Source: an uncultured Gammaproteobacteria bacterium
GTDB lineage: Bacteria > Patescibacteriota > Patescibacteriia > UBA9570 > XYC2-FULL-38-9
Direction: 5' to 3'
NCBI GenBank assembly: GCA_964344485.1
Contig: CAYFNF010000003.1
Span: 148,467-212,466 of the forward strand
Length of the DNA stretch: 64,000 nucleotides
The notes below the pieces were generated by a model. That model worked only from the letters and a program-made list of their open reading frames with translations. It made no database searches and was not told where the DNA came from. The position numbers and the translations under genes were made by a program. Positions 4,390 to 35,340 of this stretch are shown piece after piece. Position 1 is the first letter of the stretch. Every line of letters begins with the position of its first letter.

Positions 4390-4896
4390 CTACACGGTGT
4401 CGCGGAAGGTCTCTTGCGGCTGATCGATCCACGGGCACTCACCGCTGGCGTCTGTTGCCACGAACTGCGCGTGGACGTCCGGTTCGACCGTTGAGGTCTG
4501 CTTGTGCCACAGGACAGCGAGCGTGATCTCGTCGCGTGGGATACTCTCCCAGTCAGCAAGCCACTGCAGGGTGCGTTCCGTGGTCAGACCCGAGTCCGTC
4601 AGGTCATCGACCAGAATCACTCCAGCGCGCCGAAGCGGTTTGGCTGAAGTGAGGTCGCGGCTGAGCATGACCTCGCGCTGCTTCTGGTCCCCGTCCGGGT
4701 AGCTGGAGACCGAGAGCACGGCCAGCGGAAGACCGAGCGTACGAGCGATCAGCTCACCGGGCAGCATGCCGCCCTTGGCGATGCAGATCACCTGCTGGAA
4801 CTCGATTCCGCTCTCGCGAAGCTTCCGGATCAGGGTCCGGACCAGCTCGAAGTATGCGTCCCAGGTCACGTGTATTCGCGGGTGTTCGTCTGACAT
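4390..4896 (-). CDS. gpt: Xanthine-guanine phosphoribosyltransferase-like PRTase (high-GC island A)
   Basis: IHVTWDAYFELVRTLIRKL, ICIAKGGMLPGELIARTLGLP, SVSSY, PRPP motif VILVDDLTDSGLT and PWIDQP parallel E. coli Gpt block by block. GGAGGA lies 10 nt upstream of the ATG at 4896; the ORF-track start at 4914 is an alternative. Line 4441-4500 has 39/60 G+C. Confidence 0.75.
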   Translation of the reverse strand: MSDEHPRIHVTWDAYFELVRTLIRKLRESGIEFQQVICIAKGGMLPGELIARTLGLPLAVLSVSSYPDGDQKQREVMLSRDLTSAKPLRRAGVILVDDLTDSGLTTERTLQWLADWESIPRDEITLAVLWHKQTSTVEPDVHAQFVATDASGECPWIDQPQETFRDTV

Positions 4897-4975
4897 GATG
4901 GTTCCGTCCTCCAATTAGTTTTGCCCGTTTCTATTGTACAACAAAAACAGTTTTTTTAGTATGTAGGGCTATAAA

Positions 4976-5893
4976 TTAATTTACCGTATAATCTGCGAAC
5001 TCGGGCTCTCGGATGAATTCAACATGAGCCAGGTTGCCGACTCCTGTTTCCTGGTCCTGACGAATCATGCGCTCTAGATGTGGAATAATGCTCTCTGGAT
5101 AAAAACGAATCGCGCTTAAACTATTTCTCAGCACATCGGATAAACGCACAGTTGCGTTTCCGGTCTCTTGAAAAGAAGGATCAATATGCTGGATTAATTG
5201 TTCGAGTAAACCGCGGAGGTGAGCCTCTGCTCGTCGCATGTTTTCCACTTCATCGTCTCGTAATTGTATTTTTCCACTATGTATCAATTCCATAATATGA
5301 CTGGAAAGAACACCGAATAGATGTGGATTCTCCATTTCAAGTTTATAGTAGCGATGAGATCCACCTTGTTCATCAGTAACCAAGAACTGTATTTCATCCA
5401 TAGGGTACTCTCTGACTCCTGCTTTGCTCATCAAGTTTGGCATTGCGAGAACACGATCCTGGTCCCCAATGCTTGCAGTGAGCTCTTTGACTAGTCGATC
5501 AATCTCAGGAGCAGAACGATCCAATACAGTTGTGCGGTCCCCAGAATACTCCGTGCCAGGTTGTTCTCGTTGAATGACAAGCTTTCGATCAAGCACCGCG
5601 TTGTTCACCGTACGCCCAACAAAGTAATCTACTTGTGTTCTATCCAACGTACGTAGTAAGCTCGTGCGGTTATAACGCTTTCCTAGTGTTGGTGTTCGTA
5701 GCTGATCATACGTACCTTGCGAGAACTCCCGTTGCGGTTCACGTGTGAGTAAATGCTGTAGGTATCGCTCGGAACGTTCGACTGTTTGTCCTTCTTTTAG
5801 TTTCTCTTCTCTCAACCGCGCAACAAAACCTGGATCATCGCGTAAGCGCGGATCTTGCCATCCTCCCCTTTGATATAACGGCCTACCTGGCAT
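4976..5893 (-). CDS. Hypothetical protein (305 aa)
   Basis: Long ORF of backbone composition with no signal peptide or TM segment and no domain I recognise. A TATAAT box at 5900-5905 lies 6 nt upstream of the ATG. Confidence 0.55.
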   Translation of the reverse strand: MPGRPLYQRGGWQDPRLRDDPGFVARLREEKLKEGQTVERSERYLQHLLTREPQREFSQGTYDQLRTPTLGKRYNRTSLLRTLDRTQVDYFVGRTVNNAVLDRKLVIQREQPGTEYSGDRTTVLDRSAPEIDRLVKELTASIGDQDRVLAMPNLMSKAGVREYPMDEIQFLVTDEQGGSHRYYKLEMENPHLFGVLSSHIMELIHSGKIQLRDDEVENMRRAEAHLRGLLEQLIQHIDPSFQETGNATVRLSDVLRNSLSAIRFYPESIIPHLERMIRQDQETGVGNLAHVEFIREPEFADYTVN

Positions 5894-5943
5894 TGTTGTA
5901 TTATACTACTATCTGTCTCTATTCTGGGTCTGAATTACTGCTT

Positions 5944-5980
5944 TGTCAATATTGACAGCTTTTACTACGTGATATATAGT
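5944..5980 (+). promoter_or_regulatory. Sigma70-like promoter TTGACA-17-TATAGT, with its -35 inside a 14-bp palindrome
   Basis: TTGACA at 5952-5957, a 17-nt spacer, and TATAGT at 5975-5980. TGTCAATATTGACA (5944-5957) is a perfect palindrome that places a second TTGACA on the minus strand. Confidence 0.5.
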
Positions 5981-5989
5981 ACTCGCAAC

Positions 5990-6040
5990 ATGAAGAACCA
6001 CGTATACAACGCTACAGTAACAACTACCCACCTTATGTGA
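5990..6040 (+). other. Mini-ORF (16 codons, MKNHVYNATVTTTHLM) or small RNA within a promoter-terminator unit
   Basis: The ATG is 9 nt after the TATAGT box, the same leaderless geometry as real genes here. There is no SD. The unit is followed by the terminator at 6070-6092. Confidence 0.3.
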
Positions 6041-6069
6041 GGCGTTGTTTAGTTTGTATCAATACCCTA

Positions 6070-6092
6070 GCGCCTCACTCGAGGCGCTTTTT
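6070..6092 (+). terminator. Intrinsic terminator
   Basis: GCGCCTC-ACTC-GAGGCGC (7-bp GC-rich stem) followed by TTTTT. Confidence 0.65.
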
Positions 6093-6107
6093 GATTATTT
6101 ATTCATT

Positions 6108-6235
6108 ATGAACTTTCTCTTTTTTCAATCAACTACTACACCGTTATTGCTCTTCTTCCTCACTGGAACAGTGCCGTAATTAGTGTTGTGTAGTTGAAAG
6201 GAAGAAGAGCGCGGTCCGAATGGGCCGTGTTTTTG
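6108..6235 (+). promoter_or_regulatory. Structured leader upstream of the carboxylate-amine ligase gene: mini-ORF, long-range helix, inner hairpin and a second terminator
   Basis: A 23-codon ORF spans 6108-6179 (MNFLFFQSTTTPLLLFFLTGTVP). A perfect 12-bp inverted repeat pairs GCTCTTCTTCCT (6149-6160) with AGGAAGAAGAGC (6199-6210). An inner hairpin CACTG-GAA-CAGTG lies at 6161-6173. CAACTAC (6130-6136) is complementary to GTAGTTG (6190-6196). Terminator CGCGGTCC-GAAT-GGGCCGTG plus TTTTT lies at 6210-6235. Confidence 0.45.
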
Positions 6236-6263
6236 TTCTTTTGAATGTAAAGGAGGAATTCCA

Positions 6264-7232
6264 ATGTATGGAATTGAAGCAGAGTATCTGATGACGAGTC
6301 ATCGCATCCAAGATGTGCTCAAGCTGCAGCTCCCGGGCGTGACCGCCGAGTTCTTCGACTTCATGGTCGAGATCATCACGGATCCGCACGCGCGTGCACG
6401 TCAGGCTGTGGACCAGCTGGAGCGTCGGGTGCAAAGAATGCGTCGACGAGGTGTGGAGCTCGAGCAGTGGGCGTCCTTCCCGGACCGAGTTCAGCCGATT
6501 ACGTTCACGGACGTGGTCGCAGACAGCCCGTACTACCGCTGGGTCTATGACCAAGCGTGTAGATTCACGGGTCATGAGCCGCTGGACCTGCACCATGTGG
6601 GCATGCACCTGAACTACTCGTGCTCGGACATGAGCGAAAACGAGCTGGTGCACGCGGTGAACTGGTGTCGGTGCATGAACTTCTTGTTCATCCTGTTCTC
6701 AGCAAACTCACCGTTCCAGAATGGGCAGTCCTGCGGGCTACTGTCACGACGGTCATATCAGTACCCCAACCGATACGACGTCCCGCTGTGGGAAAGCGCC
6801 GTCGCGTTCAAGCGCTGGATCCAGGAGCAAGAAGCGTTGTATCGCATCTACCCTGGAAAAGGTCGCTGCTGGATGACGGTCTGCCCGCGCTTAGAGGATA
6901 ATGATTTCCGCAAACCGATTCAACGGATCGAACTGCGATCGTTAGACTCAGGCACCAATGTCCGCTTCGGTGTTGTGCACGGGTGCTGCAAGCTACTCGA
7001 GCGCATTGTCTTGCGCGCACGCCAAGGAGCGCCCCTGCCAGCGCAACTGAACGAACTGCAGCACAACGATCGAGAGGTCTCGCGGCTCGGAGCAAGCGCA
7101 TGGGTACGCTTGAATGGGCAAGAGTTCTGCGTGCAGCAGCTCGCTGAACAATGGGCAGCGGGTATCGACACGCTGGAGCAGATATTAACGCACGGATGCG
7201 CAGCACAATCGTCCTTGCGCTACTGCGTTTAA
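6264..7232 (+). CDS. Carboxylate-amine ligase, glutamate-cysteine ligase family 2 (YbdK-like) (high-GC island B)
   Basis: The N-terminal YGIEAEYLM and EFFDFMVEIITDP..ARQAVDQLERRV follow the GCS2 pattern (G-x-E-x-E, then E...E..T.P with a helical region). At 322 aa it is shorter than typical YbdK. AAAGGAGG lies 7 nt upstream of the ATG. Line 6361-6420 has 38/60 G+C. Confidence 0.65.
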   Translation: MYGIEAEYLMTSHRIQDVLKLQLPGVTAEFFDFMVEIITDPHARARQAVDQLERRVQRMRRRGVELEQWASFPDRVQPITFTDVVADSPYYRWVYDQACRFTGHEPLDLHHVGMHLNYSCSDMSENELVHAVNWCRCMNFLFILFSANSPFQNGQSCGLLSRRSYQYPNRYDVPLWESAVAFKRWIQEQEALYRIYPGKGRCWMTVCPRLEDNDFRKPIQRIELRSLDSGTNVRFGVVHGCCKLLERIVLRARQGAPLPAQLNELQHNDREVSRLGASAWVRLNGQEFCVQQLAEQWAAGIDTLEQILTHGCAAQSSLRYCV

Positions 7233-7327
7233 CTCTCTGCAACACAAAGAGAACATGGTCTAGTATGAGCCACACATCATACTTTTTTTCTTTCTTCTAA
7301 ACTGCGCCTACGAATAATAAAACGGTA

Positions 7328-8551: not shown

Positions 8552-8612
8552 ATGTATTCTTTATTGATTAAGTGTATAGTATAACAGAAAGCAATGCTTA
8601 AAAAAAGCTGCG

Positions 8613-9020
8613 CTATTTCATATTATACGATGCCTGGAGCCAGGATAATAATTCTTTATTAATGTCTTTCTTGCTTTTCAAATCAAGACAGATTTTATAG
8701 CTCTTTGCGGACAAAGGAACTACAGCTTTTATTCTTTGCTTGGCGATCTTCTGACTATAAATAAACCGGATCTCTAATCGGTCTTTTTTTGGTAGCGCTG
8801 CGAGAAAATCGAATGTGCCGAATAGGTGTACGCAACAAGGAATGGAAATAATCTTGCACTTTCCAATTTTACTGTTTATCTCCTTTACCAAATAATTAAA
8901 AAGCTCTTGGGCCACTGTTTTGTTCTTGAAATGCTCTTTGACATCTAGTCTTTGGCAGGTGTGTGGTTGTTTCGCTCTACGAAAAATACGTTCGCATTTA
9001 GGGCAGGTCCACATAAACAA
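8613..9020 (-). CDS. DUF5655-like small protein
   Basis: The N-terminal CPKCERIF..AKQPHTC followed by an alpha/beta region (FDFLAALPKKDRLEIRF) resembles the DUF5655 family layout. The start may be M3. Confidence 0.5.
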   Translation of the reverse strand: MFMWTCPKCERIFRRAKQPHTCQRLDVKEHFKNKTVAQELFNYLVKEINSKIGKCKIISIPCCVHLFGTFDFLAALPKKDRLEIRFIYSQKIAKQRIKAVVPLSAKSYKICLDLKSKKDINKELLSWLQASYNMK

Positions 9021-9070
9021 TTGCTCGTTTTACGGATTATTATTCTCAGTATATCATTTTTGTGCCATAT

Positions 9071-9091
9071 AAAAAACAGGGCGAGTCCCTG
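9071..9091 (-). terminator. Intrinsic terminator downstream of tRNA-Asn (hairpin usable on both strands)
   Basis: CAGGG-ACTCG-CCCTG followed by TTTTTT on the minus strand. Confidence 0.6.
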
Positions 9092-9101
9092 CTTTTATCT
9101 G

Positions 9102-9173: not shown

Positions 9174-9240
9174 ATAATTCCTTTCTAAAAGAACACGGAC
9201 ATGAGTATATCGTACTCTTTTTTAAACGTCAATAGACTCT

Positions 9241-9915: not shown

Positions 9916-9925
9916 ACCGTTCTTT

Positions 9926-11320
<1,395 letters not shown>

Positions 11321-11323
11321 ACG

Positions 11324-18210: not shown

Positions 18211-18214
18211 ATAT

Positions 18215-23764: not shown

Positions 23765-23832
23765 GTATGATTATAACAAATAAAAATATCACAAAATAGT
23801 GAAAAAGTCAATGGAATCCTCCAATACAATCA

Positions 23833-26800
23833 TTATGCAGCAGCAGCTGGCGGCTCGGGTTGCTGACGATGTCGATGATGGCTGAACCATGCTATACCAA
23901 CTAAGAATATAATGACGATTCCAATGTTAATCATCACCAGCATGGTGGTGCTTGAGAGGCGATTCTTCTCTTCAATCACAAACCGCGTGATCTCGACCTG
24001 GTCAGATTTCACACCGTTTACTTCGGTTTGAGCAAAAACGACGTGATCTCCTTCACCGAGCAACTCTGCTGGAACCGTAATACTCCATTTACCGTTGGTG
24101 TCTACTTGCGCGACTTTTACTAATGGGTCTGAATAGATCGTCAGAATTGCCACAGCAGACATCTCTCTATACTGCTCAGCAATCTCTCCGGAGATAGTAA
24201 TCTCGTTCTTCTGTTCTTCGACTGTGCCGCCGAATAATCGTCTTGTTGCATCAATAATATCCCACTGCTGAACTTGCGTATAGGTGACGGTCCCATCATC
24301 TGATACCGTCGGTTCGATTGTAGTGCTATCTTGCTGGAACTCTATATCCGCAGTGTCTTGCAGCTGTCCAGTCTCGGTGGTCTGCAATTCTTCTCTTTGC
24401 TGCTTGGTCAGCGGCACGACTTCATCTGTATATGTATACGGATTCTCTGGCGGTTGTTTGACTCCATCCTCAGCATATTGTGTTTTTATTAGCTCTTCAA
24501 ATTTCTTTACGTTCACTACAACCACATCTGGAAGGCCGGTGTCGGTTGAACCCCCTTGGATTGGGTTGGTGCCGTACTTCACTTCATCACTATCTGATAC
24601 GCCGTCGTCATCAGAATCCGTGTCTGTTGGGTCAGAACCCAAATCCACTTCGTCGGAATCGCTTACCCCATCTTGATCTGAGTCCGCGTCTTCTGGATCA
24701 GTACCTAGCTCTTTCTCTTGTTCATCAGTCAGGCCGTCTCCGTCACTATCGGTCTCAGCTGGCTCGGTGTCAGTTCCTTGGTCAGGGCCTGGGTCTGTGC
24801 CCTGGCTCGGATCGCCGGTGTCAGTGTCTGGAGTATCAGTAGAAGGAGTTTCTTGAGGGGTGGCAGGGGCTACGGGTACGCTCACAGGAGCACTTACTGG
24901 TGCTGACACAGTAAAGGTGATTTCATTCGAAGTAGTCTCTGGATAGCCAGCTTGTTCAGAAGTGACAGCGTATGCAGTATGCGTGCCTGTAGATAGTGCA
25001 GATGGACGACATGCAACAGAGCTGGTCTCTCCACCACCAGTTGCAGTAGTATCGCAAATTCTCTGCCCATCAACATAGATTTGGGTATAAGCACCAGTAC
25101 GTGCTAATAGAGTAATCCATGGTCGGTTATATGATGTCTGCGCGTCCACCACAACTTGTTGCATCACTGCTGCAGGGTATGGGGTTGCGCGTACAATAGT
25201 CTGTGGAGTAAATACCTTTATCACAGTATCTTTTTTCGTATTCACGACCTTTACCTTGATCGCATTCGCTCCAATTGATAGTGCGGTGGTTGGTGTGCCC
25301 TGATATGAAATCACTGGACCAGTGTCGCTGGTAATAGCAGCAGTTCCGCTCAACGTACCGTTTACGAACAGTTGTACTGCAACATCATCCACTGAGATAT
25401 TTCCGATATAGACGTTACCGAAAAAGACCGGGTTCTTACTAAACGTCACATTCGAAGTCAATTTACTTCGCTCCTCTTTTGGATAGATATGAAATCGATC
25501 TGACACTACAGAAGATCCGACCGTATACCGGACACTGGATGTCTTTCCCACATTCCCTTTCTTATCTTCGATATTTGCCTCAGACGTATGTTTGTCGTAA
25601 TTCTTCTGGATCTGCGAATCTACCTCCCATTCTCCTTGCGCGTCTGTGGTGTCAGAACCGTCTAACTCACCTTCGGTATATACAGAAACTTCAGACTCTG
25701 TTTCAGCAGTTCCACTAAATGAAACGTATTGGTTGTAAACAATGTCATTTTGTTCTGGCTCTTCGATTACTGCTGCAGGCGGGCCGATTGAGAAACTCGC
25801 GGTCTTCTCCCACTCTGTGGAGCTGGATCTACTAGCGGTCTTCACTTTTGTGTACAGCTCCCAGAGTCCGCGCTTCAGTGTAAACTCTGTTTCTGCTGTG
25901 CCGTTACTGCCGACCTGTTCTTCATTGATCTTCTCTGCGCCGTTCTTTACGCGCACAAATTTAAACACCACCCACTGGCCAGTGGTTCCGGTTGCTGATA
26001 GCTCTACCTTCAGACGACCGGTATCCTCCTGTGCACTCAGTCGATGTACGCTCGAAGGATCACTTCGCAACTGCTCTCCATTTACTGTTAGTGCGGTGGG
26101 TAACAGTGATGACGCTGATCCTTCCTGTGTAGTGAATGAGTCTACTGAAGAGTTCGATGTATTACTACTCGCATCCGCGCTCACTACCTGATAGTAATAT
26201 GTAGTGCTGCTTAAAAGCCCTGATACAGTCACTGAATGGCTCTTTGTTAATCCACTAGTTGTTTGTGACTGCGGAATTTGCTCAGTCTTTCCATATCGTA
26301 CTTGTGATGTTGCTTTTTCATTCGTGGTCCAAGTAATAACCGCGGATGTAGAACGGCGAGTGACTTGAATATCTGAAATAGTGGGCGCCGAAAGGTCTCC
26401 AGTATCTGTGGTTGGGATTACTGACCCTGAAGTAAACTGAGATGTATTGTTTGATGAGTCTGTTAGCGTTGCAGTGACTTTATAGTTAGAAGCATATGAT
26501 TCTAGAGTGCTCTTGGGAACATCAACGCTCCATGTTAAACTCGTGACCGCTGCTTCTGTTATATAGACCTCGCCTTCATTATTCCGGTCTACAAAGACCT
26601 CCACTGTTCCGTCACTAGATGCAGTACCCGAGACAGTGTATGTATCTCCTTGCAAAGAAATTGCACTGATCACTGGGGTAGCAAGCCCCTCATTTGCTCC
26701 ATCAATTAGATTAATTCCACTTGAGGAGTTGTTATAGATAGAATTCTGTGTTACTAAATTGTATTTAGTTCCACTTTGAGAGATGTTCAATCCATCTGCA

Positions 26801-29202
26801 TAGGCGTTAGTAACTATGTTGCCCGGTCCAATGGTGTTGCTCTGACTAGTATTGGAGAGTGTTACTGCGTTCCACTGACACGGAAGCGGATCACCGTTTG
26901 TATCGATGCCGATCCTGTTTGATGAGAGAGTATTGTTTGAAGAGTCAGCAAATACCACACAGCGGTCTATATTGCCGATCACATTATCACTAATGGTGTT
27001 CCCAGTGCTGTTCGCTCGAATGATAATTCCATATACGTCATCCTGAGTAACAGGTTTCGTGATACCAATCCTATTACTGGAAATCACATTATTAATTCCA
27101 CCTTGCATTAGAATGTTCATGACATTGCCCGCAATAGTGTTGCTACCATTGATAGTGTTAGAACTGCCAGTGAGTTCAAGGCCGACAGCATTCTGCATCA
27201 CCGTTTGTTTACTCACTGCGAGGCCAATAGTATTCCCAGTGGCGGTGTTACTGTCTCCTTCAATCCATAACCCCACGCCGCTATGGTTAGAGATGAAATT
27301 CGTAGATATAGAATTACTATCGCTTTCAGTATCAATCACAAGACCGTTTGTGGTGTTTCCGATATTCGTATCACTTGCAGATACACCGATGTAGTTATCT
27401 GAGAGTGTGTTTGAATCAGAGGAATAGATAGCAATGCCCGATTCATTAAAACCAATGACATTAGATTGCGATGTTCCAATTCTACTATTTGATACTCCAG
27501 TAAATAGAATTCCGGTTCCAGTGTTCCCTCGATCGACTAGTGAAGCGTTGGTTCCAATATAATTACCCTCTATCGCTAGCTGAGAGATGTTTCCTGCGCT
27601 GCTATTTGCCTCAATACCATTTGATAGATTTCCAGAGATAGTATTCTTCGAAATCGATACCGCATTCGCGCTAATGGCAATAGAGATGCCATCCTCACCA
27701 TTCGAAACCGCTGCTCCACTTGAATCCAATCCAATAGTATTCTCAGTTATTGTGACATCGCTATCGTTTTCCAAGTAAATCCCATTTGCATCATTTCCTG
27801 AAATCACGTTATTCGGACCAATCGTTGTGTCTGCCCCACCAAAGATTCCGTCAGTATTTGGAATGGCTGTTCCAGAACTGTTTAATCCAATATAGTTCCC
27901 GGTGATTGTTCCAGTGCTCTGGTTCACTACTACCCCTGACTGGGTATTACCTGCAATAGTGTTGTTCGAAAGTGTATTCGCTCCTTGAAATGTTACACCG
28001 TTATTATTTTCAACTGCGCTCGTGCCGTTACTATCTACTCCGATATTATTCTTATTCACCGTGTTCCCAGATGTAGTTGCTTCTAAGAAGATACCTGACT
28101 TTGTATTGCCTGAAATTGTATTGCCAACGATCGTGTTATTGTTTCCGGTTACTCGAATACCTGAATCCCCATTAGTGGATTTTGTGGAACCGTCTGCAGT
28201 TATACCTATATAGTTCAAACCGATAGTACTGCTACTGCCTCGCAATTCAATTCCGTTGCTCGTATTTCCAGAGATGATATTGCGGAACGCTTGGTTGCTG
28301 CTATCTCCAATAGTGATGCCAGATACCGTCGCTGCTATATTAACTCCGTTTATCCCATTAGCGGTGATAGTGTTAGAACGCAATACATTAGTATTTGAAT
28401 TCTCGATAAAATTCACTCCCTGCTCAGAATTATTCGATATCGAGTTACCGGTTACCGTGGTGCTGGTTGCAGTGCCCCCAAAATAGATTCCGTTACGATT
28501 GCCTTTGATTGTGTTGCCTGAAATGGCATTATTACTCGATGCGACCTGAATGCCTTCACCCCCTGCAAAGCCTTCTATCGTGAAATTTGATATCTGACAA
28601 TTATCCGCTCGGATAGCTAGCCCATCATTATCTTGAGCTGCTGACAGCGCGCTCCCTTCAATGCCAACTCTGTTATCCCCATCGATTATAAGTTCATCAG
28701 TAATCGCGGGTAGCACACTTGAGGTTACTGCTATCTTTCCGTTTAATGAACTATTGAAACTGATCACGTCAGCACCAAGACTCGCGTTTGCATCGAGTAT
28801 AGCTTGCCGCAAAGATCCCGCACCGCTGTCATTCAAGTTTGACACAGTGAAATTAGCAGCATACGCGACTTTGATCTGATTCACCGGTAGCACTACAGAT
28901 GAAATTGCATACAAGAGAATAACCACTGCAACAAAGAACGCGGTGACTAACCCGCTGCGTAGTCGTATCTTTTTTCTGCGACTGTGATGCTCATGATACG
29001 AAAAACCCCAGATCCCTTTATGGTCTTGGTCATATAATGTACAGAATGTGTGCTGAGGTGGATAGAAAATGATATAGAAATATTCGTACAGCACGTATGC
29101 TATATATAGTGGAACGAGCGCAATGCCTAAAAGGACACGAATAATGAACGGTCGGGGTTTGGCTTGTACGTAGCACTCAATATGATTGATGGTTTTTTTC
29201 AT
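23833..29202 (-). CDS. Giant cell-surface protein (1789 aa): parallel beta-helix repeats, FN3, Ig-like regions, TSP3-type Ca-binding repeats and a C-terminal TM anchor
   Basis: The N-terminus has hydrophobic anchors. About 750 aa of (I/V)xGNxIxxN repeats (SGNTISGN, IAGNT...) match the NosD/CASH beta-helix type. The FN3-like stretch is APTISDIQVTRRSTSAVITWTTNEKATSQVRYG. The TSP3 repeats read DSDGDGLTDEQE, DSDQDGVSDSDE and DSDDDGVSDSDE. The C-terminal TM is MLVMINIGIVIIFLVGIAWF. Confidence 0.85.
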   Translation of the reverse strand: MKKTINHIECYVQAKPRPFIIRVLLGIALVPLYIAYVLYEYFYIIFYPPQHTFCTLYDQDHKGIWGFSYHEHHSRRKKIRLRSGLVTAFFVAVVILLYAISSVVLPVNQIKVAYAANFTVSNLNDSGAGSLRQAILDANASLGADVISFNSSLNGKIAVTSSVLPAITDELIIDGDNRVGIEGSALSAAQDNDGLAIRADNCQISNFTIEGFAGGEGIQVASSNNAISGNTIKGNRNGIYFGGTATSTTVTGNSISNNSEQGVNFIENSNTNVLRSNTITANGINGVNIAATVSGITIGDSSNQAFRNIISGNTSNGIELRGSSSTIGLNYIGITADGSTKSTNGDSGIRVTGNNNTIVGNTISGNTKSGIFLEATTSGNTVNKNNIGVDSNGTSAVENNNGVTFQGANTLSNNTIAGNTQSGVVVNQSTGTITGNYIGLNSSGTAIPNTDGIFGGADTTIGPNNVISGNDANGIYLENDSDVTITENTIGLDSSGAAVSNGEDGISIAISANAVSISKNTISGNLSNGIEANSSAGNISQLAIEGNYIGTNASLVDRGNTGTGILFTGVSNSRIGTSQSNVIGFNESGIAIYSSDSNTLSDNYIGVSASDTNIGNTTNGLVIDTESDSNSISTNFISNHSGVGLWIEGDSNTATGNTIGLAVSKQTVMQNAVGLELTGSSNTINGSNTIAGNVMNILMQGGINNVISSNRIGITKPVTQDDVYGIIIRANSTGNTISDNVIGNIDRCVVFADSSNNTLSSNRIGIDTNGDPLPCQWNAVTLSNTSQSNTIGPGNIVTNAYADGLNISQSGTKYNLVTQNSIYNNSSSGINLIDGANEGLATPVISAISLQGDTYTVSGTASSDGTVEVFVDRNNEGEVYITEAAVTSLTWSVDVPKSTLESYASNYKVTATLTDSSNNTSQFTSGSVIPTTDTGDLSAPTISDIQVTRRSTSAVITWTTNEKATSQVRYGKTEQIPQSQTTSGLTKSHSVTVSGLLSSTTYYYQVVSADASSNTSNSSVDSFTTQEGSASSLLPTALTVNGEQLRSDPSSVHRLSAQEDTGRLKVELSATGTTGQWVVFKFVRVKNGAEKINEEQVGSNGTAETEFTLKRGLWELYTKVKTASRSSSTEWEKTASFSIGPPAAVIEEPEQNDIVYNQYVSFSGTAETESEVSVYTEGELDGSDTTDAQGEWEVDSQIQKNYDKHTSEANIEDKKGNVGKTSSVRYTVGSSVVSDRFHIYPKEERSKLTSNVTFSKNPVFFGNVYIGNISVDDVAVQLFVNGTLSGTAAITSDTGPVISYQGTPTTALSIGANAIKVKVVNTKKDTVIKVFTPQTIVRATPYPAAVMQQVVVDAQTSYNRPWITLLARTGAYTQIYVDGQRICDTTATGGGETSSVACRPSALSTGTHTAYAVTSEQAGYPETTSNEITFTVSAPVSAPVSVPVAPATPQETPSTDTPDTDTGDPSQGTDPGPDQGTDTEPAETDSDGDGLTDEQEKELGTDPEDADSDQDGVSDSDEVDLGSDPTDTDSDDDGVSDSDEVKYGTNPIQGGSTDTGLPDVVVVNVKKFEELIKTQYAEDGVKQPPENPYTYTDEVVPLTKQQREELQTTETGQLQDTADIEFQQDSTTIEPTVSDDGTVTYTQVQQWDIIDATRRLFGGTVEEQKNEITISGEIAEQYREMSAVAILTIYSDPLVKVAQVDTNGKWSITVPAELLGEGDHVVFAQTEVNGVKSDQVEITRFVIEEKNRLSSTTMLVMINIGIVIIFLVGIAWFSHHRHRQQPEPPAAAA
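24582..24750 (-). repeat. Three thrombospondin type-3-like acidic calcium-binding repeats (coding)
   Basis: The DxDxDGxxDxxE motif is repeated three times in the translated sequence of the giant surface protein. Confidence 0.6.
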
Positions 29203-29317
29203 ATCTCAGGATAACAAAAAGGCCTTCTCCTCAATAAAAAGCCTTTATTTTTCTATTCAATGAATGCATATACTATTGTCTGGTTTTGTTTTTGTTTTTG
29301 AACTGACTACATATAGA

Positions 29318-29346
29318 ATTTTAACATTTTTAAGATTGTTTGTCAA
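29318..29346 (-). promoter_or_regulatory. Sigma70-like promoter TTGACA-17-TAAAAT for the giant surface-protein gene
   Basis: Minus-strand TTGACA at 29346-29341, a 17-nt spacer, and TAAAAT at 29323-29318. It lies about 110 nt upstream of the ATG at 29202. Confidence 0.45.
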
Positions 29347-29465
29347 ACAATAAAATCCGGGAAAAAGCGGGTTTTGCTGTCCGCAGGATACAAAAAAAGC
29401 CAGGGACCCACGATCGGGTGTGGCGTTAGCTCAGGAACGGGTGACGCGGTGCTGCGTCGGTCCGG

Positions 29466-29759
29466 CTACGCGCTGGGCGCGTCGCTGGCCAGGGCCAGCA
29501 GGCCGTCCGGCATGACCGCGGCGAGCGTACCGAGGTGGCCGACGCCGTTGGCGCCGCTCGAGCCGTTCCCGGGCTCGTTGGACTGCGCGTCCTGGTCGGC
29601 GGTACCGCCGTCGCTGCTGCCGTCGTCGTCCGGGCTCTTCCTCTGGCTGCTGCCGGGCAGGCCGTCCGCCTCGCCACGTCGGGCGAGCTGGGCCGTGAGG
29701 TTCTGTGAGCCACCGACTCCGCGGTGCAGGGGGCAGGCGTTCCGTCGTCTCTGCGTCAT
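29466..29759 (-). CDS. Small G/S/D-rich, probably disordered protein (97 aa) (high-GC island C)
   Basis: GAGGAG lies 5 nt upstream of the ATG. Third codon positions in this frame are almost all G/C, which picks this frame over four overlapping alternatives. Line 29521-29580 has 45/60 G+C. No recognisable domain. Confidence 0.5.
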   Translation of the reverse strand: MTQRRRNACPLHRGVGGSQNLTAQLARRGEADGLPGSSQRKSPDDDGSSDGGTADQDAQSNEPGNGSSGANGVGHLGTLAAVMPDGLLALASDAPSA

Positions 29760-29793
29760 CTCTTCTCCTCGTCAGTTCGACGTTCGCGCAGGC

Positions 29794-29875
29794 GTTGGGC
29801 AGGAGCCCAACTAAAAGCATCGAGTTGCCTCGAGCTTAACGCAAGAACTCTACACGAAAGTCTAATATTTGTCAA
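29794..29875 (-). promoter_or_regulatory. Promoter TTGACA-17-TAGAGT plus a 5'-UTR hairpin for the island C gene
   Basis: Minus-strand TTGACA at 29875-29870 and TAGAGT at 29852-29847. A perfect 7-bp hairpin GTTGGGC-TCCT-GCCCAAC lies at 29811-29794, within the ~85-nt leader. Confidence 0.45.
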
Positions 29876-29883
29876 GAGTAGAC

Positions 29884-29908
29884 TAGAAAACAGGGTTATT
29901 CGCCCTGT
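29884..29908 (-). terminator. Intrinsic terminator after ppsA
   Basis: ACAGGG-CGAATAA-CCCTGT followed by TTTTC on the minus strand. Confidence 0.6.
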
Positions 29909-29929
29909 TGCTAGTTTTTCTCCTTGTTT

Positions 29930-32374
29930 TTAGCTCTTATTCTTCAACTCTTTTTCATGCTGCGCAATCATCACCGAAGTCTTTACAACTGTGTCAGGAT
30001 TCAATGAAATAGAATCAATTCCTTTGTCGACTAAGAACTCTGCGATCTCTGGAAAGTCTGATGGTGCTTGTCCACAGATCCCGATCTTCTTCCCTTCTTC
30101 ATGAGCATAGCGAATCACTCGTTCAAGGATAATCGTAACCGCAAGATTCCGTTCGTCATACAGATGAGCAACTAATCCAGAGTCACGGTCCAACCCAAGC
30201 AGCAGTTGTGTCAGATCATTGGTCCCGATAGAGTATCCATCAAATATCTTTAAGAACTCTTTTGCGAGAATCACATTCGCTGGTATCTCACACATCATGT
30301 AGATCTCTAATCCATTCTCTCCTTGTTTCAGTCCGTTCTCTGCCATGATCTGTACTACCTTCTTCCCTTCCTCTGGTGTACGACAGAACGGGATCATAGC
30401 CTTCATATTCGTGAGCCCCATCTCATTGCGTACTCGTTTAAACGCCTCGCACTCTAACGCAAACGCTTCTTTATACTTCTCGGAGTAGTACCGTGACGCA
30501 CCACGCCATCCGATCATGGGGTTTTCCTCATGTGGCTCAAATTGCTTTCCTCCAATTAAGTTCGCGTACTCATTGGACTTGAAATCAGACATGCGCACGA
30601 TCACATCATGCGGATAAAACGCTGCACAGATCTTTCCCACTCCTTCTGCGAGCTTCTCAACAAAGTATTCGGTCTTGTCTTTATACCCAGCGGTTAATTC
30701 CTCTATCTGTTCCTTTACTTCACTGTCTTCAAGCTCATTAAAACGCAGCAATGCTAATGGATGTATCTTGATATAGTCCAAAATGATCAGTTCTTCACGT
30801 GCGAGTCCTACTCCCTGATTCGGAATTTGCGCAAAGTCGAATACGCGCGACGGGTCCGCTACAATCATCATCATCTGTGTTTCGGGCAGTTCCATACCAG
30901 AGATGTCAGTTTCATCTATACGAAACGGTAATTCGCCTTCATAGATAAACCCTCTCTCACCTTCTGCACACGAGACCGTCACGGTATCACCAGAATGCAA
31001 CGTGGTCGTAGCTTCTCCGGTGCCGACAATAGCCGGAATGCCGAGCTCACGAGAGACAATAGCAGCATGGGATGTTCTGCCTCCGGAGTTAGTTACAATC
31101 CCAGAGGCGATCTTCATAATCGGCTCCCAATCAGGGTCTGTTATTTCAGTCACAAGTATCTGTCCTTTTTGAAATCGGTGGATCTCAGACGCGTTTTTAA
31201 TGACATTTACTTCACCAGTACCGATCTTTGCGCCAACTGCGACTCCTTCCAACAACACCTTGCCCTTCTCTTCTAATACATACTCTCTGATCACATTCTT
31301 GTCTGTTTGTGACTGCACGGTCTCTGGACGCGCTTGCACAATGTATAACTCTCCGGTCCCACCATCTTTGGCCCATTCAATATCCATGGCTTTTTCATAG
31401 TGCTCCTCAATCTGCATGGCCCAGTGTGCGAGTGTAAGAATCTCCTCATTTGTCAGAACGAACTGTTGTTGCTCTTCTTCTGGAACCTGCACTTCTTTGA
31501 CCGCGCCTCCTAATGAGACCTCTGCTTCAGCTGCATAGACCATCTTATACTGCTTGGACCCAAGTTTTTTCTCAATAATCGGAGAGTTGGTAAATGCGAT
31601 CTTGCCCTGCTTCTCTACAGCGCCCTGCTTGAGCGCGGGCTTGAATACAATGAACTCATCTGGGTCAACCTTTCCTTGAACCACCATCTCGCCTAGCCCC
31701 CACGTAGCGTTGATCACCACCGCGTTCTCAAATCCAGACTCGGGGTCAATAGAGAACATCACTCCAGAGCATGCAGTGTCTGATCGCACCATCTTCTGGA
31801 TACCAACCGAAAGTGCAATCGTAAAGTGATCAAAGTTCTTGTCTTCACGGTATGAGATCGCGCGGTTAGTAAACAGTGACGCAATACAGCGCCTAGTGGC
31901 TTCTAGTACTTCGTGTGCTCCTTGTACATGTAAAAAAGTCTCTTGCTGTCCAGCGAATGACGCGTCCGGCAAGTCCTCAGCAGTTGCAGAGGACCGAACC
32001 GCGACATCCACATACTCTTCTCCATCTTTTTTGCTCAGTTCAGCATACGCTTGCTCCACTGCCTGCTCTAACTCATTCGGAAAATCTGCCTTCAAAATCG
32101 TCTCGCGTACTTTATGCCCTCGTTCCGTCAGGTTCTTCATGTCTGTAGTGTCTAAATCCGAAAGAATCTCCTTAATAGTATCTCGAATACCGGCTTGATC
32201 AATAAAGAAATTATACGCGTGCGCGGTCAGAGCAAATCCATTTGGAACTCGAATCCCTTTTTCAGCCAAGTTTTGATACATTTCGCCGAGCGAAGCGTTC
32301 TTACCGCCGACATACGGCACGTCCTCGATGCTTAAGTCGTTGAACCAAAGTATATATTCTTGGTCTTTGCTCAT
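29930..32374 (-). CDS. ppsA: Phosphoenolpyruvate synthase (pyruvate, water dikinase)
   Basis: The N-terminus has an ATP-grasp fold. The phosphohistidine motif is GGRTSHAAIVSRELGIPA and the C-terminal PEP-utilising motif is SIGTNDLTQ. The start is set at MSKDQEYILWF (32374) because the ORF-track start at 32413 lies inside the pyk terminator hairpin. Confidence 0.9.
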   Translation of the reverse strand: MSKDQEYILWFNDLSIEDVPYVGGKNASLGEMYQNLAEKGIRVPNGFALTAHAYNFFIDQAGIRDTIKEILSDLDTTDMKNLTERGHKVRETILKADFPNELEQAVEQAYAELSKKDGEEYVDVAVRSSATAEDLPDASFAGQQETFLHVQGAHEVLEATRRCIASLFTNRAISYREDKNFDHFTIALSVGIQKMVRSDTACSGVMFSIDPESGFENAVVINATWGLGEMVVQGKVDPDEFIVFKPALKQGAVEKQGKIAFTNSPIIEKKLGSKQYKMVYAAEAEVSLGGAVKEVQVPEEEQQQFVLTNEEILTLAHWAMQIEEHYEKAMDIEWAKDGGTGELYIVQARPETVQSQTDKNVIREYVLEEKGKVLLEGVAVGAKIGTGEVNVIKNASEIHRFQKGQILVTEITDPDWEPIMKIASGIVTNSGGRTSHAAIVSRELGIPAIVGTGEATTTLHSGDTVTVSCAEGERGFIYEGELPFRIDETDISGMELPETQMMMIVADPSRVFDFAQIPNQGVGLAREELIILDYIKIHPLALLRFNELEDSEVKEQIEELTAGYKDKTEYFVEKLAEGVGKICAAFYPHDVIVRMSDFKSNEYANLIGGKQFEPHEENPMIGWRGASRYYSEKYKEAFALECEAFKRVRNEMGLTNMKAMIPFCRTPEEGKKVVQIMAENGLKQGENGLEIYMMCEIPANVILAKEFLKIFDGYSIGTNDLTQLLLGLDRDSGLVAHLYDERNLAVTIILERVIRYAHEEGKKIGICGQAPSDFPEIAEFLVDKGIDSISLNPDTVVKTSVMIAQHEKELKNKS

Positions 32375-32391
32375 AGGGGTGTGTTTATATG

Positions 32392-32413
32392 AAAAATGTG
32401 GCGGTTGCCACAT
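32392..32413 (-). terminator. Intrinsic terminator after pyk
   Basis: ATGTGGC-AACC-GCCACAT followed by TTTTT on the minus strand. Confidence 0.6.
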
Positions 32414-32447
32414 ACTAGAGTATCATATTTCGAACGATCTATAAACT

Positions 32448-33866: not shown

Positions 33867-33878
33867 GTACGTATTATA

Positions 33879-34313
33879 TCATATTGAACAATAAAAAAAA
33901 GCTGCTGTTGCAGGTACTGACCAGGCTGCGGCTACGCGGGTGAGTGCGAGTCTGTCACGTCGCAGAACTCGTTCCGGTACCTCCAGGGCAGTGAGCTGCC
34001 CCGCGGTGTAGCGCTGCCAGATGATGAGCTGATCCAGGTGCGTTCCCGGGATGCTGCTGAGCGCAGCGTTGGTGCGGCGCACAGCCGTGAGCACGGTCAT
34101 GGGAGGTGCACCGTTGGCAGATGCCTCGGTTCCGCTGGCCACGTAGATGCGGCCCTCTCCACGTACCTCGTCCAGCTCCTCGCTGGTGAAGCCCCCGCCC
34201 AGTGAATCGGGCTTGAAGACCTGGAGGCTCCCGATCTCCACCACCAGCCTGAGCGCGGTCTCGCTGGCGTACAGCACGTGCGTCGGCGTTCCAGAAGTTG
34301 TGTTGCAGTTCAT
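33879..34313 (-). CDS. Unknown soluble protein (144 aa), possibly 3'-truncated or fused (high-GC island D)
   Basis: The ATG at 34313 has GGAG 8 nt upstream. A candidate promoter TTGCAT-17-TATACC lies at 34396-34368. High GC ends near 33901, and the last ~7 codons (..FFYCSI) read through a T8 run into AT-rich host DNA, stopping inside the pyk -10 region. Line 34141-34200 has 41/60 G+C. Confidence 0.5.
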   Translation of the reverse strand: MNCNTTSGTPTHVLYASETALRLVVEIGSLQVFKPDSLGGGFTSEELDEVRGEGRIYVASGTEASANGAPPMTVLTAVRRTNAALSSIPGTHLDQLIIWQRYTAGQLTALEVPERVLRRDRLALTRVAAAWSVPATAAFFYCSI

Positions 34314-34442
34314 ACGTTCGCTCCAGCACTGTCCTTTCAATGCAGCTATGGGTGTTCCCACCAACAGGGTATACCATAGCAGGAATAAATATGCAAACCA
34401 CTCTCATACGTCACACTATATAAGACATGATATGAAAACTGC

Positions 34443-34471
34443 TTGACTGTAACACCAAAACTACCTATTAT
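34443..34471 (+). promoter_or_regulatory. Promoter TTGACT-17-TATTAT for the island E gene, divergent from the island D promoter
   Basis: TTGACT at 34443-34448, a 17-nt spacer, and TATTAT at 34466-34471. Confidence 0.45.
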
Positions 34472-34523
34472 CAGGGACGGAATAGTCTTTGTCGCCGTAT
34501 GAACCTGTTGGAATGGAGGTGTT

Positions 34524-34856
34524 TTGAGCGCCGCAGCCCACGACCGAGACTTCCCGCGTACGCGAGGTGAACCCGTCGAGACCGATGACGATGTCCGTGT
34601 CGCACTGCAACGACTCGAAGCCATCCCCGCACTGGAAGGTGCAGTGGCAACGATCGTGGCCTGGTGCTTCGTGGCCTTCGCGGTCAAGGAAGGATGGTGG
34701 CACGCCATCCTGATCTTCACCCTCGTGGGATGCGTGATCGCGTCTCTGGCGTGTATCGTCCACCGGGCCGACCTGAACCGGAAGTACATCCGGTCGTTCC
34801 TGTTCTTCTTCCTGGTCTGGCCACTGGTGATGACGGTCAAGGTCAAGAGCTTCTGA
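34524..34856 (+). CDS. Small polytopic membrane protein (110 aa, 2-3 TM) (high-GC island E)
   Basis: TTG start with GGAGG 4 nt upstream. The N-terminus is acidic and is followed by the hydrophobic segments AVATIVAWCFVAFAV, AILIFTLVGCVIASLACIV and FLFFFLVWPLVM. Line 34621-34680 has 39/60 G+C. Confidence 0.5.
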   Translation: MSAAAHDRDFPRTRGEPVETDDDVRVALQRLEAIPALEGAVATIVAWCFVAFAVKEGWWHAILIFTLVGCVIASLACIVHRADLNRKYIRSFLFFFLVWPLVMTVKVKSF

Positions 34857-34926
34857 TCACGGTACGCGGTTTTTTTATACTATTGCATTTTTTCGCGTTA
34901 ATCGCGTTTATTTCTATAAACAGCAC

Positions 34927-34954
34927 TTGATTTTTTCATTTCTCTCTGTATACT
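34927..34954 (+). promoter_or_regulatory. Promoter TTGATT-16-TATACT for the island F gene
   Basis: TTGATT at 34927-34932 and TATACT at 34949-34954. Confidence 0.4.
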
Positions 34955-34989
34955 AGGGGCGCACCTTTTTACTGCGAGGGGAGATAGGA

Positions 34990-35340
34990 GTGCACCCAGA
35001 GGAGCGGGAAGCCGCTCAGGCCCAATTCAGCATCGAATCATCGCGACAGCATGCCATCATGGCGATCGCGGTGCTGGGAAGCATCGCCTTTCACGGCGTC
35101 TTCCTGCCGGTTGTCTGGATCTTCTTCGGAATGTTCATTGCAGTTGGAGCAGACATCGCCCTGTGCATTCTGGCCGCCCTGGTGTGCCAGAACTGCGTCA
35201 AGGTCGTCCGCATACCTCGTCATGCGGGCATACTGCTCACGCTGTCGTACTTCCCGGAGTTCCTGGTCTGGGCTGCAATGTGGCCGATGATGGTCACTGC
35301 TGCGAAGATCCACTTCAGTCGAATGTCACCTCCCCCTTGA
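34990..35340 (+). CDS. Small polytopic membrane protein (116 aa, 3-4 TM) (high-GC island F)
   Basis: GTG start preceded by GGGGAGATAGGA. Hydrophobic segments are AIMAIAVLGSIAFHGVFLPVVWIFFGMFIAV, ADIALCILAALV and LVWAAMWPMMV. Line 35161-35220 has 37/60 G+C. Confidence 0.5.
   Translation: MHPEEREAAQAQFSIESSRQHAIMAIAVLGSIAFHGVFLPVVWIFFGMFIAVGADIALCILAALVCQNCVKVVRIPRHAGILLTLSYFPEFLVWAAMWPMMVTAAKIHFSRMSPPP

Follow-up and report, generated by a model that had tools for sequence, protein, structure and literature searches.

Six gene-sized GC-rich islands in a Peribacteria-like chromosome, probably acquired recently from GC-richer sources

Composition and codon usage of the islands

The window analysed here, a 64,000-nt stretch of DNA, has a G+C content of 45.8%, and scanning revealed six ORF-sized islands of 57–74% G+C within it. 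In 90-nt windows, the stretches longer than 250 nt with more than 58% G+C were 4371–4910 (62%), 6301–7220 (59%), 29371–29820 (69%), 33901–34330 (64%) and 34491–35350 (57%, two ORFs), with no others. A maximal-scoring-segment scan delimited 4377–4882, 6323–7227, 29399–29808, 33901–34869 and 34956–35353 with scores of 17.6–59.8, compared with a top score of 14.8 in mononucleotide shuffles (28 kb). GC3 of islands 1–6 was 0.80, 0.70, 0.91, 0.70, 0.78 and 0.72, against 0.422 ± 0.040 (maximum 0.516) for 47 background ORFs (z = 6.9–12.2), and these six were the only GC/GC3 outliers among the 53 ORFs (z = 5–12). All six use CTG/CTC, CCG, ACC/ACG and GTC/GTG instead of the A/T-ending codons of the backbone. 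The original prediction had held that six high-GC ORF-sized stretches are present and that their bias reflects codon usage from a GC-richer source rather than low complexity. Sliding G+C, the segment scan and GC3 (0.70–0.91 against 0.42) bear out the former and GC3 with the codon-family switch the latter; its nine 60-nt hand counts of G+C all proved exact on recount.

The switch in composition falls near the ORF ends, from 59 nt inside to 67 nt outside, in agreement with the predicted 'tens of nt'. For islands 1, 2, 5 and 6, G+C at all three codon positions fits the equilibrium of genomes of 54–66% G+C, and position 3 gives 63% for island 4 and 73% for island 3; the regression constants are reportedly those of Lawrence and Ochman from 1997. 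GC3 did not lag behind GC1 or GC2 in the islands, so there was no sign of amelioration. A Shine–Dalgarno site was found at all six island ORFs and a promoter-like site upstream of five. The backbone pyruvate kinase had its best match in a Candidatus Peribacteria MAG, at only 46% identity.

A seventh GC-rich stretch lies at the window end (63747–64000, 68% G+C), within an Ala/Gly-rich ORF on the minus strand. It was rejected as a further island: its GC1/GC2/GC3 of 0.87/0.83/0.25 indicate a native ORF with backbone-like codons that is GC-rich through its amino acids.

Genes of the islands and their flanks

Island 1 (4390–4896, minus strand; 63% G+C) occupies a GC-rich segment at about 4377–4912, with a Shine–Dalgarno GGAGGA at about 4905–4910. 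Its 168-aa product matched Pfam PF00156 (65.5 bits), its family profile matched the purine phosphoribosyltransferases (PRTases) 4trb and 1vdm in the PDB, and the PRPP-loop motif VILVDDLTDSGLT could be read directly in the translation. These matches showed a predicted type-I purine-salvage PRTase of the 6-oxopurine type, as had been proposed from the letters. The same product, read from a GTG start, is in the public record. Its closest relatives are only 50–55% identical, and the names among them comprise one hypoxanthine PRTase, one xanthine PRTase and one 'hypothetical protein'. In other genomes this family clearly follows host composition: GC3 was 0.33–0.37 on contigs of 37% G+C and 0.74 on a contig of 58% G+C, where the nearest relative (54%) sits.

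Island 2 (6264–7232, plus strand; 58% G+C; GC-rich segment 6323–7227) encodes a 322-aa protein that is identical to one in the public record. It scored above the Pfam GCS2 cut-off (PF04107, 41.4 bits), and its AlphaFold model (pLDDT 87.4) had YbdK (1r8g) as top fold match in the PDB (E 8e-12, TM 0.68). The model showed a predicted YbdK-fold carboxylate-amine ligase, consistent with the GCS2-type ligase named in the original prediction. There was no sequence-level match in the PDB, and the protein fell far under every NCBIfam cut-off.

The 370 nt of AT-rich DNA upstream of the ligase contain a leader (5952–6263, plus strand) with putative tandem threonine attenuators. Scans placed a promoter-like site at 5952–5980, followed on the same strand by leader ORF 1, MKNHVYNATVTTTHLM (5990–6040), a terminator at 6069–6088, leader ORF 2, MNFLFFQSTTTPLLLFFLTGTVP (6108–6179), and a terminator at 6205–6234, with the ligase Shine–Dalgarno AAGGAGG on the 3′ side of the latter. 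Both short ORFs carry a Thr run; runs like these occurred in 0.6% of shuffles, and the leader folds had z = -3.5 and -5.7. No Rfam model matched above threshold, and Phe_leader matched 6104–6237 below it (23.7 bits). Upstream of the ligase homologues in L008, L018 and L019 there are likewise leader ORFs with Thr runs, and behind each of them lie a hairpin and a T-tract; visual inspection picked out an antiterminator pairing across the leader stop only in leader 1 of the window, L008 and L018. Scarcity of charged tRNA-Thr would probably stall the ribosome and, by attenuation, turn the ligase on. Since Thr leaders recur upstream of ligase homologues in three genomes, the AT-rich flank belongs to the gene unit. 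This flank may itself be imported, so that the switch in composition does not mark the edge of foreign DNA. The gene-exact look of the islands is thus partly an illusion: G+C does switch near the ORF ends, as had been described, but the AT-rich flank of the ligase is part of the unit.

Island 3 (29466–29759, minus strand; 74% G+C) is a 97-aa Gly/Ser/Asp-rich ORF with a GAGGAG Shine–Dalgarno and no match to protein families. Its GC-rich segment (about 29399–29812) also covers some 50 nt of 5′ UTR and, on the 3′ side, a hairpin with a T-run, and a promoter-like site lies in AT-rich DNA at 29875–29847 (minus strand). An independent ENA contig has exactly this ORF among its gene calls.

Island 4 encodes a 144-aa soluble ORF on the minus strand. 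A GC-rich ORF had been predicted here from about 33901 to 34313; the ORF is real but its end was misplaced, and it spans 33879–34313 (GC-rich segment 33903–34345), with the last eight codons and the stop in AT-rich DNA or a T-run. GC3 was 0.70–0.74 in this frame, no Pfam, NCBIfam, PHROG or PADLOC match was found, and a single-sequence model was uninformative (pLDDT 35). Island 5 (34524–34856, plus strand) encodes 110 aa with three predicted membrane helices, seen as three separate hydrophobic stretches in hydropathy analysis, from a TTG start with a GGAGG Shine–Dalgarno and a promoter-like TTGACT-17-TATTAT at 34443–34471 (plus strand). Island 6 (34990–35340, plus strand; GTG start) encodes a membrane protein of 116 aa, in which hydropathy analysis predicts two or three helices from one long hydrophobic stretch of 50 residues plus an overlapping window. 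It has a promoter-like TTGATT-16-TATACT at 34927–34954 (plus strand) and shares the terminator at 35372–35390 with the convergent efp gene. Islands 5 and 6 are weakly similar in the same C-terminal region (pairwise E 0.006). A search of these three ORFs against 1.84 billion representative proteins returned no relatives. Islands 4–6 may form one 1.5-kb unit.

Origin of the islands

The six islands are probably recently acquired, unameliorated genes of GC-richer sources in a Peribacteria-like chromosome of about 45% G+C, a member of the candidate phyla radiation (CPR). They would have been inserted into intergenic gaps from organisms or elements of about 55–73% G+C, with too little time since entry for their composition to drift to that of the recipient. 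At least four integration events are suggested (island 1; leader plus island 2; island 3; islands 4–6), each importing perhaps 1.5 kb or less. The repeated gene-sized acquisitions of the original prediction remain the best reading, with an event count that need not be six since islands 4–6 may be one unit. An imported unit would have brought its own AT-rich regulatory DNA, as for the ligase, or would sit behind a sigma-70-like promoter in the flank. The twelve junctions contained no integrase, tRNA target, direct repeat or common motif; because no repeats or recombinase were seen, integration was probably illegitimate. Deletion bias of a small genome may have removed the non-functional remainder. 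The PRTase would plausibly add purine salvage. The small ORFans of islands 4–6, of which one is soluble and two are membrane proteins, would be accessory genes, as would the 97-aa ORF. No donor was found in the search: the best relatives of the PRTase and the ligase, the two identifiable genes, were 46–55% identical and belong to uncultivated bacteria, which does not uphold the actinobacterial or host donor once proposed.

Besides the missing donor and the lack of integration features at the junctions, some observations sit awkwardly with acquisition. The lack of relatives of islands 4–6 is odd if the donors came from a well-sampled high-GC phylum, the six genes form a dense cluster within 31 kb with none in the following 29 kb, and Thr codons differ between the leader (ACA/ACT/ACC) and the ligase ORF (only ACG/ACC).

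Some or all of the genes, most plausibly the ligase, might instead be long-term residents of low-GC CPR genomes, with coding bodies maintained at high G+C by selection on mRNA or translation properties or by a biased process, for example GC-biased gene conversion during frequent recombination. On four further contigs the ligase homologue exceeds the adjacent genes in G+C (L008, 53% vs 36%; L017, 52% vs 35%; L019, 62% vs 48–51%; L010, 49% vs 40%), and across six of six loci the family is equal to or above its neighbours in G+C, never below. Under acquisition this pattern needs repeated one-way transfer. Furthermore, GC1 (56–71%) and GC2 (41–48%) of the family are steady in every host, gene and flank persist together, as shown by the conserved Thr leader, and mobility signatures are absent at the islands. 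However, no mechanism is known for a GC3 increase of 0.3 over exactly one ORF, and efp, rpsF, ssb and pyk are highly expressed yet have backbone GC3. The adaptation of the PRTase family to its hosts elsewhere also counts against such maintenance, as does the L018 ligase, whose G+C equals that of its neighbours, which a native home near 50% G+C would predict. In addition, the ligase family has only eight known members, and the word-based search favours relatives of similar composition. We consider this explanation unlikely.

Far less probable is assembly chimerism or bin contamination, whereby fragments from a GC-rich organism in the same community would have been joined into a low-GC contig. 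In its favour, the window comes from a metagenome assembly, and contig L016 breaks off within island 1, 16 nt from its 3′ end. Twelve misjoins would be needed, however, each of them in an intergenic gap and beside a start or stop codon. The MEGAHIT contigs (k127_*) of ENA run ERR2281803, a second assembly, matched the window at 28959–31381 (2 mismatches) and 4406–6651 (100%) and gave 4 of the 12 junctions base for base: both junctions of island 3, plus the 5′ ones of islands 1 and 2. A de Bruijn contig path through a junction implies reads with the junction k-mers. In addition, public protein sets of the 301,665-bp NCBI contig contain ORFs overlapping islands 1–5, and the island of the L008 ligase homologue is present in both the NCBI and the Logan assemblies. 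An assembly or construction artefact, which the original prediction had wanted excluded, is effectively excluded for most islands.

Finally, islands 3–6 are hardly credible as GC-rich structured RNA genes or non-coding elements: islands 4–6 have no relatives among the representative proteins, and for islands 3, 4 and 5 other frames were chosen in the public annotation, but we found strong three-base periodicity, GC3 of 0.70–0.91 in one frame, complete ORFs with Shine–Dalgarno sites, clear transmembrane-type hydrophobic stretches in the frames of islands 5 and 6, and no Rfam match at E < 1.

Comparison with known systems

The island 1 protein shares the type-I PRTase domain and PRPP loop with GpT-1 (4trb), the Pyrococcus enzyme 1vdm and E. 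coli Gpt, and its family profile matches this group at E 1e-7 to 1e-17. It differs in scoring below the NCBIfam cut-off for the xanthine PRTase equivalog (62 vs 138 bits), and a 6-oxopurine substrate is putative. The ligase has its fold in common with YbdK/GCS2 ligases (1r8g, 1tt4), but at 322 aa it is shorter than YbdK and shares about 15% identity with it; unlike these proteins at large, it falls into a small subfamily of its own, whose genes occur in a Thr-leader or M20-peptidase context.

Like the leaders of proteobacterial thr, phe and his operons, the ligase leader has a short ORF containing consecutive regulatory codons, a 1:2 hairpin in which these codons take part, an intrinsic terminator, and an antiterminator arm overlapping the leader stop codon. 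It differs in that it precedes a ligase gene and not a biosynthetic operon, occurs in CPR-like genomes and in tandem pairs, and has leader ORFs lacking obvious Shine–Dalgarno sites.

Classical genomic islands and integron cassettes likewise have atypical G+C and codon usage and carry accessory genes. However, the units found here are 0.4–1.5 kb compared with 10–200 kb for classical genomic islands, their orientation is mixed, and tRNA target, integrase, flanking direct repeat and attC-like motif are all absent.

Single-gene transfers are common in Patescibacteria (PMC12455944), and recent acquisition of the six islands resembles these MetaCHIP-type cases: lone foreign genes in small streamlined genomes, without mobile-element hallmarks and with donors often unrecovered. 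The islands differ in that the evidence is compositional and does not consist of donor–recipient pairs, that they seem unameliorated and lie unusually close together, with six ORFs inside 31 kb, and that three of the six (islands 4–6) are ORFans in the representative search. Collectively, acquisition of the islands was most likely an ordinary kind of event, here unusually dense and clean.

Six GC-rich reading frames in a low-GC backbone

The G+C content of the window was 45.8%, and a profile in 300-nt bins contained few bins above 55%, with the strong ones at the places where ORF-sized high-GC islands had originally been predicted. Stretches of more than 250 nt exceeding 58% G+C were found at 4371-4910, 6301-7220, 29371-29820, 33901-34330 and 34491-35350. 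A likelihood-ratio segment scan returned 4377-4882, 6323-7227, 29399-29808, 33901-34869 and 34956-35353 with scores of 17.6-59.8, compared with at most 14.8 in shuffled 28-kb sequence, and the segment ends fell between 59 nt inside and 67 nt outside the ends of ORFs. These ORFs are referred to as island 1 (4390-4896, -), island 2 (6264-7232, +), island 3 (29466-29759, -), island 4 (33879-34313, -), island 5 (34524-34856, +) and island 6 (34990-35340, +). Their G+C at third codon positions (GC3) was 0.70-0.91 against 0.422 ± 0.040 (maximum 0.516) in 47 background ORFs, giving z = 6.9-12.2, and their synonymous codon choice was unlike that of the background in every multi-codon family examined. 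The islands have the composition by which a horizontally acquired gene is defined. The profile, the segment scan and GC3 all bore out the predicted islands, and the nine G+C values counted by hand for that prediction were exact.

As a negative control we used an Ala/Gly-rich low-complexity ORF (AGAGAAGAGAG...) at 63747-64000 (-), which is truncated by the boundary of the window, and compared it with the signature of the islands. This ORF has 68% G+C and a GC3 of 0.25, so its GC-richness derives from its amino acids and its codons end in A/T as in the backbone. Short GC-rich patches also lie within the first (15246-15532) and third (24732-24891) of three consecutive giant ORFs of 1179, 1849 and 1789 aa at 14671-29202 (-), the last of which carries beta-helix/NosD, purple-acid-phosphatase-N and bacterial TSP3 repeats.

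Around the islands lie ordinary genes (ABC transporter, ppsA, pyk, efp, ssb and rpsF) together with genes for giant surface-type proteins. The best match of the pyruvate kinase was a Candidatus Peribacteria MAG at 46% identity, and a scan of species-representative genomes with this protein gave relatives of at most 46% identity, no shared neighbours and no syntenic sister genome. The backbone may be that of a Peribacteria-like CPR bacterium, a label that is weak because of this low identity and because no syntenic relative was recovered.

Occurrence of the islands in public assemblies

The proteins of islands 1 and 2 are present in the public protein collection on a single NCBI contig of 301,665 bp, for which exact look-ups also gave ORFs overlapping islands 3, 4 and 5. 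Exact look-ups in an ENA assembly revealed the 97-aa ORF of island 3 and a 305-aa ORF. One MEGAHIT contig of run ERR2281803 corresponded to 28959-31381 of the window with two mismatches, both outside island 3, and a second matched 4406-6651 at 100%, so that both junctions of island 3 and the 5' junctions of islands 1 and 2 are crossed. The original prediction had left room for a chimeric assembly or an artificial construct. Since a chimera would need twelve misjoins, each beside a start or stop codon, this is ruled out for practical purposes, with a second assembly backing four of the twelve junctions and the other eight being without such confirmation.

The second ENA contig ends at 4406, 16 nt inside the 3' end of the island 1 ORF and near the island junction; strain heterogeneity there could have split the assembly graph, or coverage may simply have been low. 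The 305-aa ORF (4976-5893, -) lies between islands 1 and 2, is recorded in NCBI and ENA alike and gave no family match; its GC3 of 0.38 is that of the backbone and its GC1 of 0.62 is unusually high.

Island 1 encodes a predicted phosphoribosyltransferase

The translation of island 1 scored 65.5 bits against PF00156 (cut-off 26.3) and contains the PRPP-binding loop motif VILVDDLTDSGLT, which identifies it as a predicted type-I phosphoribosyltransferase (PRTase). The family profile matched the archaeal purine PRTases 4trb and 1vdm as well as Escherichia coli Gpt; the score against the Gpt equivalog NCBIfam NF006613 was 62.1 bits, below the cut-off of 138. The protein called Gpt-like in the original prediction would accordingly be purine-PRTase-like, its score being too low to place it in Gpt proper. 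Within its family, GC3 was 0.33-0.37 for members on 37% G+C contigs and 0.74 for a member on a 58% G+C contig, the latter being the closest relative of the window protein (54%). The composition of the PRTase family tracks the host, as for ordinary genes. Source names were attached to just three of the seven relatives.

Islands 3 to 6 encode small proteins, three of them apparently misframed in the public record

Island 3 encodes a 97-aa Gly/Ser/Asp-rich protein and island 4 a soluble protein of 144 aa, and the products of islands 5 (110 aa) and 6 (116 aa), for which two to three membrane helices are predicted, are weakly alike in their C-terminal parts. A search of 1.84 billion representative proteins gave islands 4-6 no relative at E ≤ 0.001. 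Islands 3-6 gave no meaningful match in Pfam, NCBIfam, PHROGs or PADLOC, only noise-level matches in the defence-system library, and no Pfam match in their other reading frames. A single-sequence structure model of island 4 was uninformative (pLDDT 35). That islands 3-6 might be RNA genes was rejected, as Rfam gave no match at gathering (best E 2.8-4.4).

The frames used here were chosen because GC3 is periodic in them, because they form complete ORFs behind Shine-Dalgarno sites, and because of the hydropathy pattern. In the NCBI-derived set the GC3-supported frames of islands 3, 4 and 5 are absent, and off-frame ORFs are found at 29431-29820 (-, 129 aa), 33955-34407 (-, 150 aa) and 34664-34930 (+, 88 aa). 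The off-frame translations of islands 3 and 4 are rich in Arg, Gly, Ala and Pro, which is typical of the wrong frame in GC-rich DNA. It appears that gene calling trained on the host misframes foreign genes. The island 4 ORF runs eight codons into AT-rich DNA before its end, which suggests a break point within a gene for the imported fragment.

Island 2 belongs to a ligase family with recurrent GC excess

Island 2 scored 41.4 bits against PF04107 (GCS2; cut-off 21), and a model built from seven homologues (pLDDT 87.4) was closest in fold to YbdK (1r8g; TM 0.68, E 8e-12), in line with the original assignment of a GCS2-type ligase. No match was found in the PDB at the sequence level, and the score against the NCBIfam YbdK subfamily was 42.6 bits, below the cut-off of 176. 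By profile and modelled fold, island 2 is a predicted GCS2/YbdK-fold carboxylate-amine ligase.

When the ligase was compared with its neighbours, GC3 was 0.70 versus 0.45 in the window, 0.57 versus 0.24 in contig L008 (the same locus in two assemblies), 0.68 versus 0.48 in L019, 0.48 versus 0.41 in L010 and 0.56 versus 0.54 in L018, and in L017 the ligase had 52% G+C against 35% in the flank. At none of these six loci was the ligase GC-poorer than its neighbours. A metagenome scan with the ligase alignment returned a single 1.2-kb locus. A gene-specific force may hold the ligase ORF GC-rich, in a family of eight known members; we prefer to explain the recurrent excess by repeated one-way flow from donors of about 50-60% G+C.

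The ligase homologue in L019 adjoins a 79-aa ORF (775-1014, -) with 62.5% G+C and a GC3 of 0.78; the other genes of this contig have 48-51% G+C, so that here, too, one genome contains more than one small GC-rich ORF. The 79-aa protein showed no similarity to any island protein of the window. A threonyl-tRNA synthetase gene lies directly downstream of the ligase in L008, and in L010 and L017 the ligase instead follows an M20-type peptidase.

A putative threonine attenuator precedes the ligase

The AT-rich DNA upstream of the ligase (5952-6263) begins with a promoter-like site, TTGACA-17-TATAGT, at 5952-5980, followed by the short ORF MKNHVYNATVTTTHLM and a terminator, and then by a second short ORF, MNFLFFQSTTTPLLLFFLTGTVP, and its terminator. 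Ligase homologues of 46-50% identity in unrelated neighbourhoods are preceded by a similar short ORF with a run of Thr codons, then a hairpin and a T-tract. These leaders are MRNRRFTTTTLNFLFSR and MNLFILTTTTTTTNSPPV in L008 (9700-9925), MNNSPKKQLYTTTTTP in L018 (535-680) and MTYCGRYTTTTLLTRLPS in L019 (1100-1225), the window and L008 having them in tandem pairs. Thr runs were found at all four loci with a long upstream gap and in at most 1% of shuffles per locus, and only four ATG-initiated short ORFs with TTT exist in the whole window, two of them being the ligase leaders. Folding paired the Thr-codon run with a downstream segment ahead of the terminator, and five of the six leaders had z-scores between -3.5 and -5.7. 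In leader 1 of the window, the leader stop lies within GUGAGGCG, and this segment is complementary to the 5' arm of the terminator, CGCCUCAC, which is the classical antiterminator arrangement of leader-peptide attenuators. Of the Rfam models Thr_leader and Phe_leader, only Phe_leader matched (23.7 bits against a gathering threshold of 55, E 0.086), and the leader ORFs are without clear Shine-Dalgarno sites. By sequence and fold, the leader would be a putative Thr-responsive leader-peptide attenuator.

In all of these genomes the leaders had 31-46% G+C, and this was so even in L018, whose ligase ORF has the composition of its neighbours. The AT-rich leader and the GC-rich ligase ORF travel or persist together, and the boundary of the foreign DNA is therefore not marked by the change in composition at the end of the ORF. 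The AT-rich flanks had been predicted to be host-like and to carry regulatory signals. Such signals are present, since a Shine-Dalgarno site precedes every island ORF and the AT-rich flanks of five of the six contain a promoter-like site, but the ligase flank is a recurring Thr leader and not anonymous host DNA. At 5921-5980 two promoter-like sites stand back to back, one directed toward the 305-aa ORF and the other toward the ligase leader, with their -35 boxes within the near-palindrome TTGTCAATATTGACA.

Origin of the islands

The origin of the islands was approached through regressions of codon-position on genomic G+C, with constants attributed to Lawrence and Ochman (1997). With these constants, all three codon positions of islands 1, 2, 5 and 6 point to genomes of 54-66% G+C, and GC3 does not lag behind; position 3 points to 63% in island 4 and to 73% in island 3, and in the neighbouring genes positions 1 and 3 point to about 44-46%. 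Such values are characteristic of unameliorated DNA. By the same logic as for the ligase leader and ORF, islands 4-6 and their AT-rich spacers may represent one 1.5-kb import, so that at least four events are counted.

The relatives of the PRTase and the ligase are metagenomic proteins of 46-55% identity, mostly without a source name, and no donor is nameable at this distance. Actinobacteria are densely sampled in public data, and with relatives of only 46-55% the predicted actinobacterial donor is without support, although fast-evolving small genes may still be actinobacterial. Transfer from host to symbiont is likewise unsupported. Of the repeated gene-sized acquisition from high-GC donors that had been proposed, the transfer itself agrees with the compositional break, and it is the identity of the donor that is unsupported.

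Several other routes were weighed. An origin from phages or plasmids is unsupported, because viral-contig scans with the ligase, the PRTase and islands 3, 4 and 6 and phage and plasmid DNA searches with islands 4-6 were all empty, and plasmid or phage relatives of the PRTase reached at most 38% identity. A classical genomic island or integrative element was rejected: no integrase, recombinase or transposase ORF and no tRNA gene adjoins the islands (the tRNAs of the window lie only at 9.1, 14.5 and 46.8-48 kb), and the twelve junction flanks share no common motif, inverted repeat, direct repeat or target duplication. Nor was DNA similarity found between islands or between an island and the rest of the window, and a paralogue search was empty. 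Integron cassettes have a uniform orientation, attC and intI, whereas the islands have mixed orientations (-, +, -, -, +, +), no common 3' motif and no integrase, which rules them out.

Discussion

CPR genomes are tiny, and how they gain functions is debated. Horizontal transfer is, in our judgement, the likely best explanation of the islands. We consider it improbable that, instead of being a random draw of foreign DNA, they mark a regular route by which such reduced genomes gain single genes of sub-kilobase size, or that the ligase shows gene-specific compositional maintenance. One possibility for the former is the uptake and illegitimate integration of short DNA fragments from a GC-richer partner organism; for the latter, the ligase unit may keep its GC-rich coding body and AT-rich Thr-sensing leader in any low-GC genome. 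If either were true, composition would be a marker of an undescribed process of CPR gene flow or gene maintenance.

On the reading of horizontal transfer, a cluster of unameliorated single-gene imports that includes a putative purine-salvage enzyme is a clean natural case of gene gain with no mobile-element machinery. The composition switch at ORF ends is no delimiter of foreign DNA, because the imported regulatory DNA is itself AT-rich, and gene callers trained on the host misframe such genes, three of the islands being off-frame in the public record. These annotation errors, the recurrent ligase GC excess and the putative Thr attenuator before an uncharacterized ligase subfamily are modest additions. 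The attenuator offers a testable entry to the function of this GCS2-fold subfamily and would add CPR-like genomes to those with leader-peptide attenuation. The transfer of single genes into Patescibacteria has been described before (PMC12455944), and the islands would therefore be a further, unusually clean case of it.
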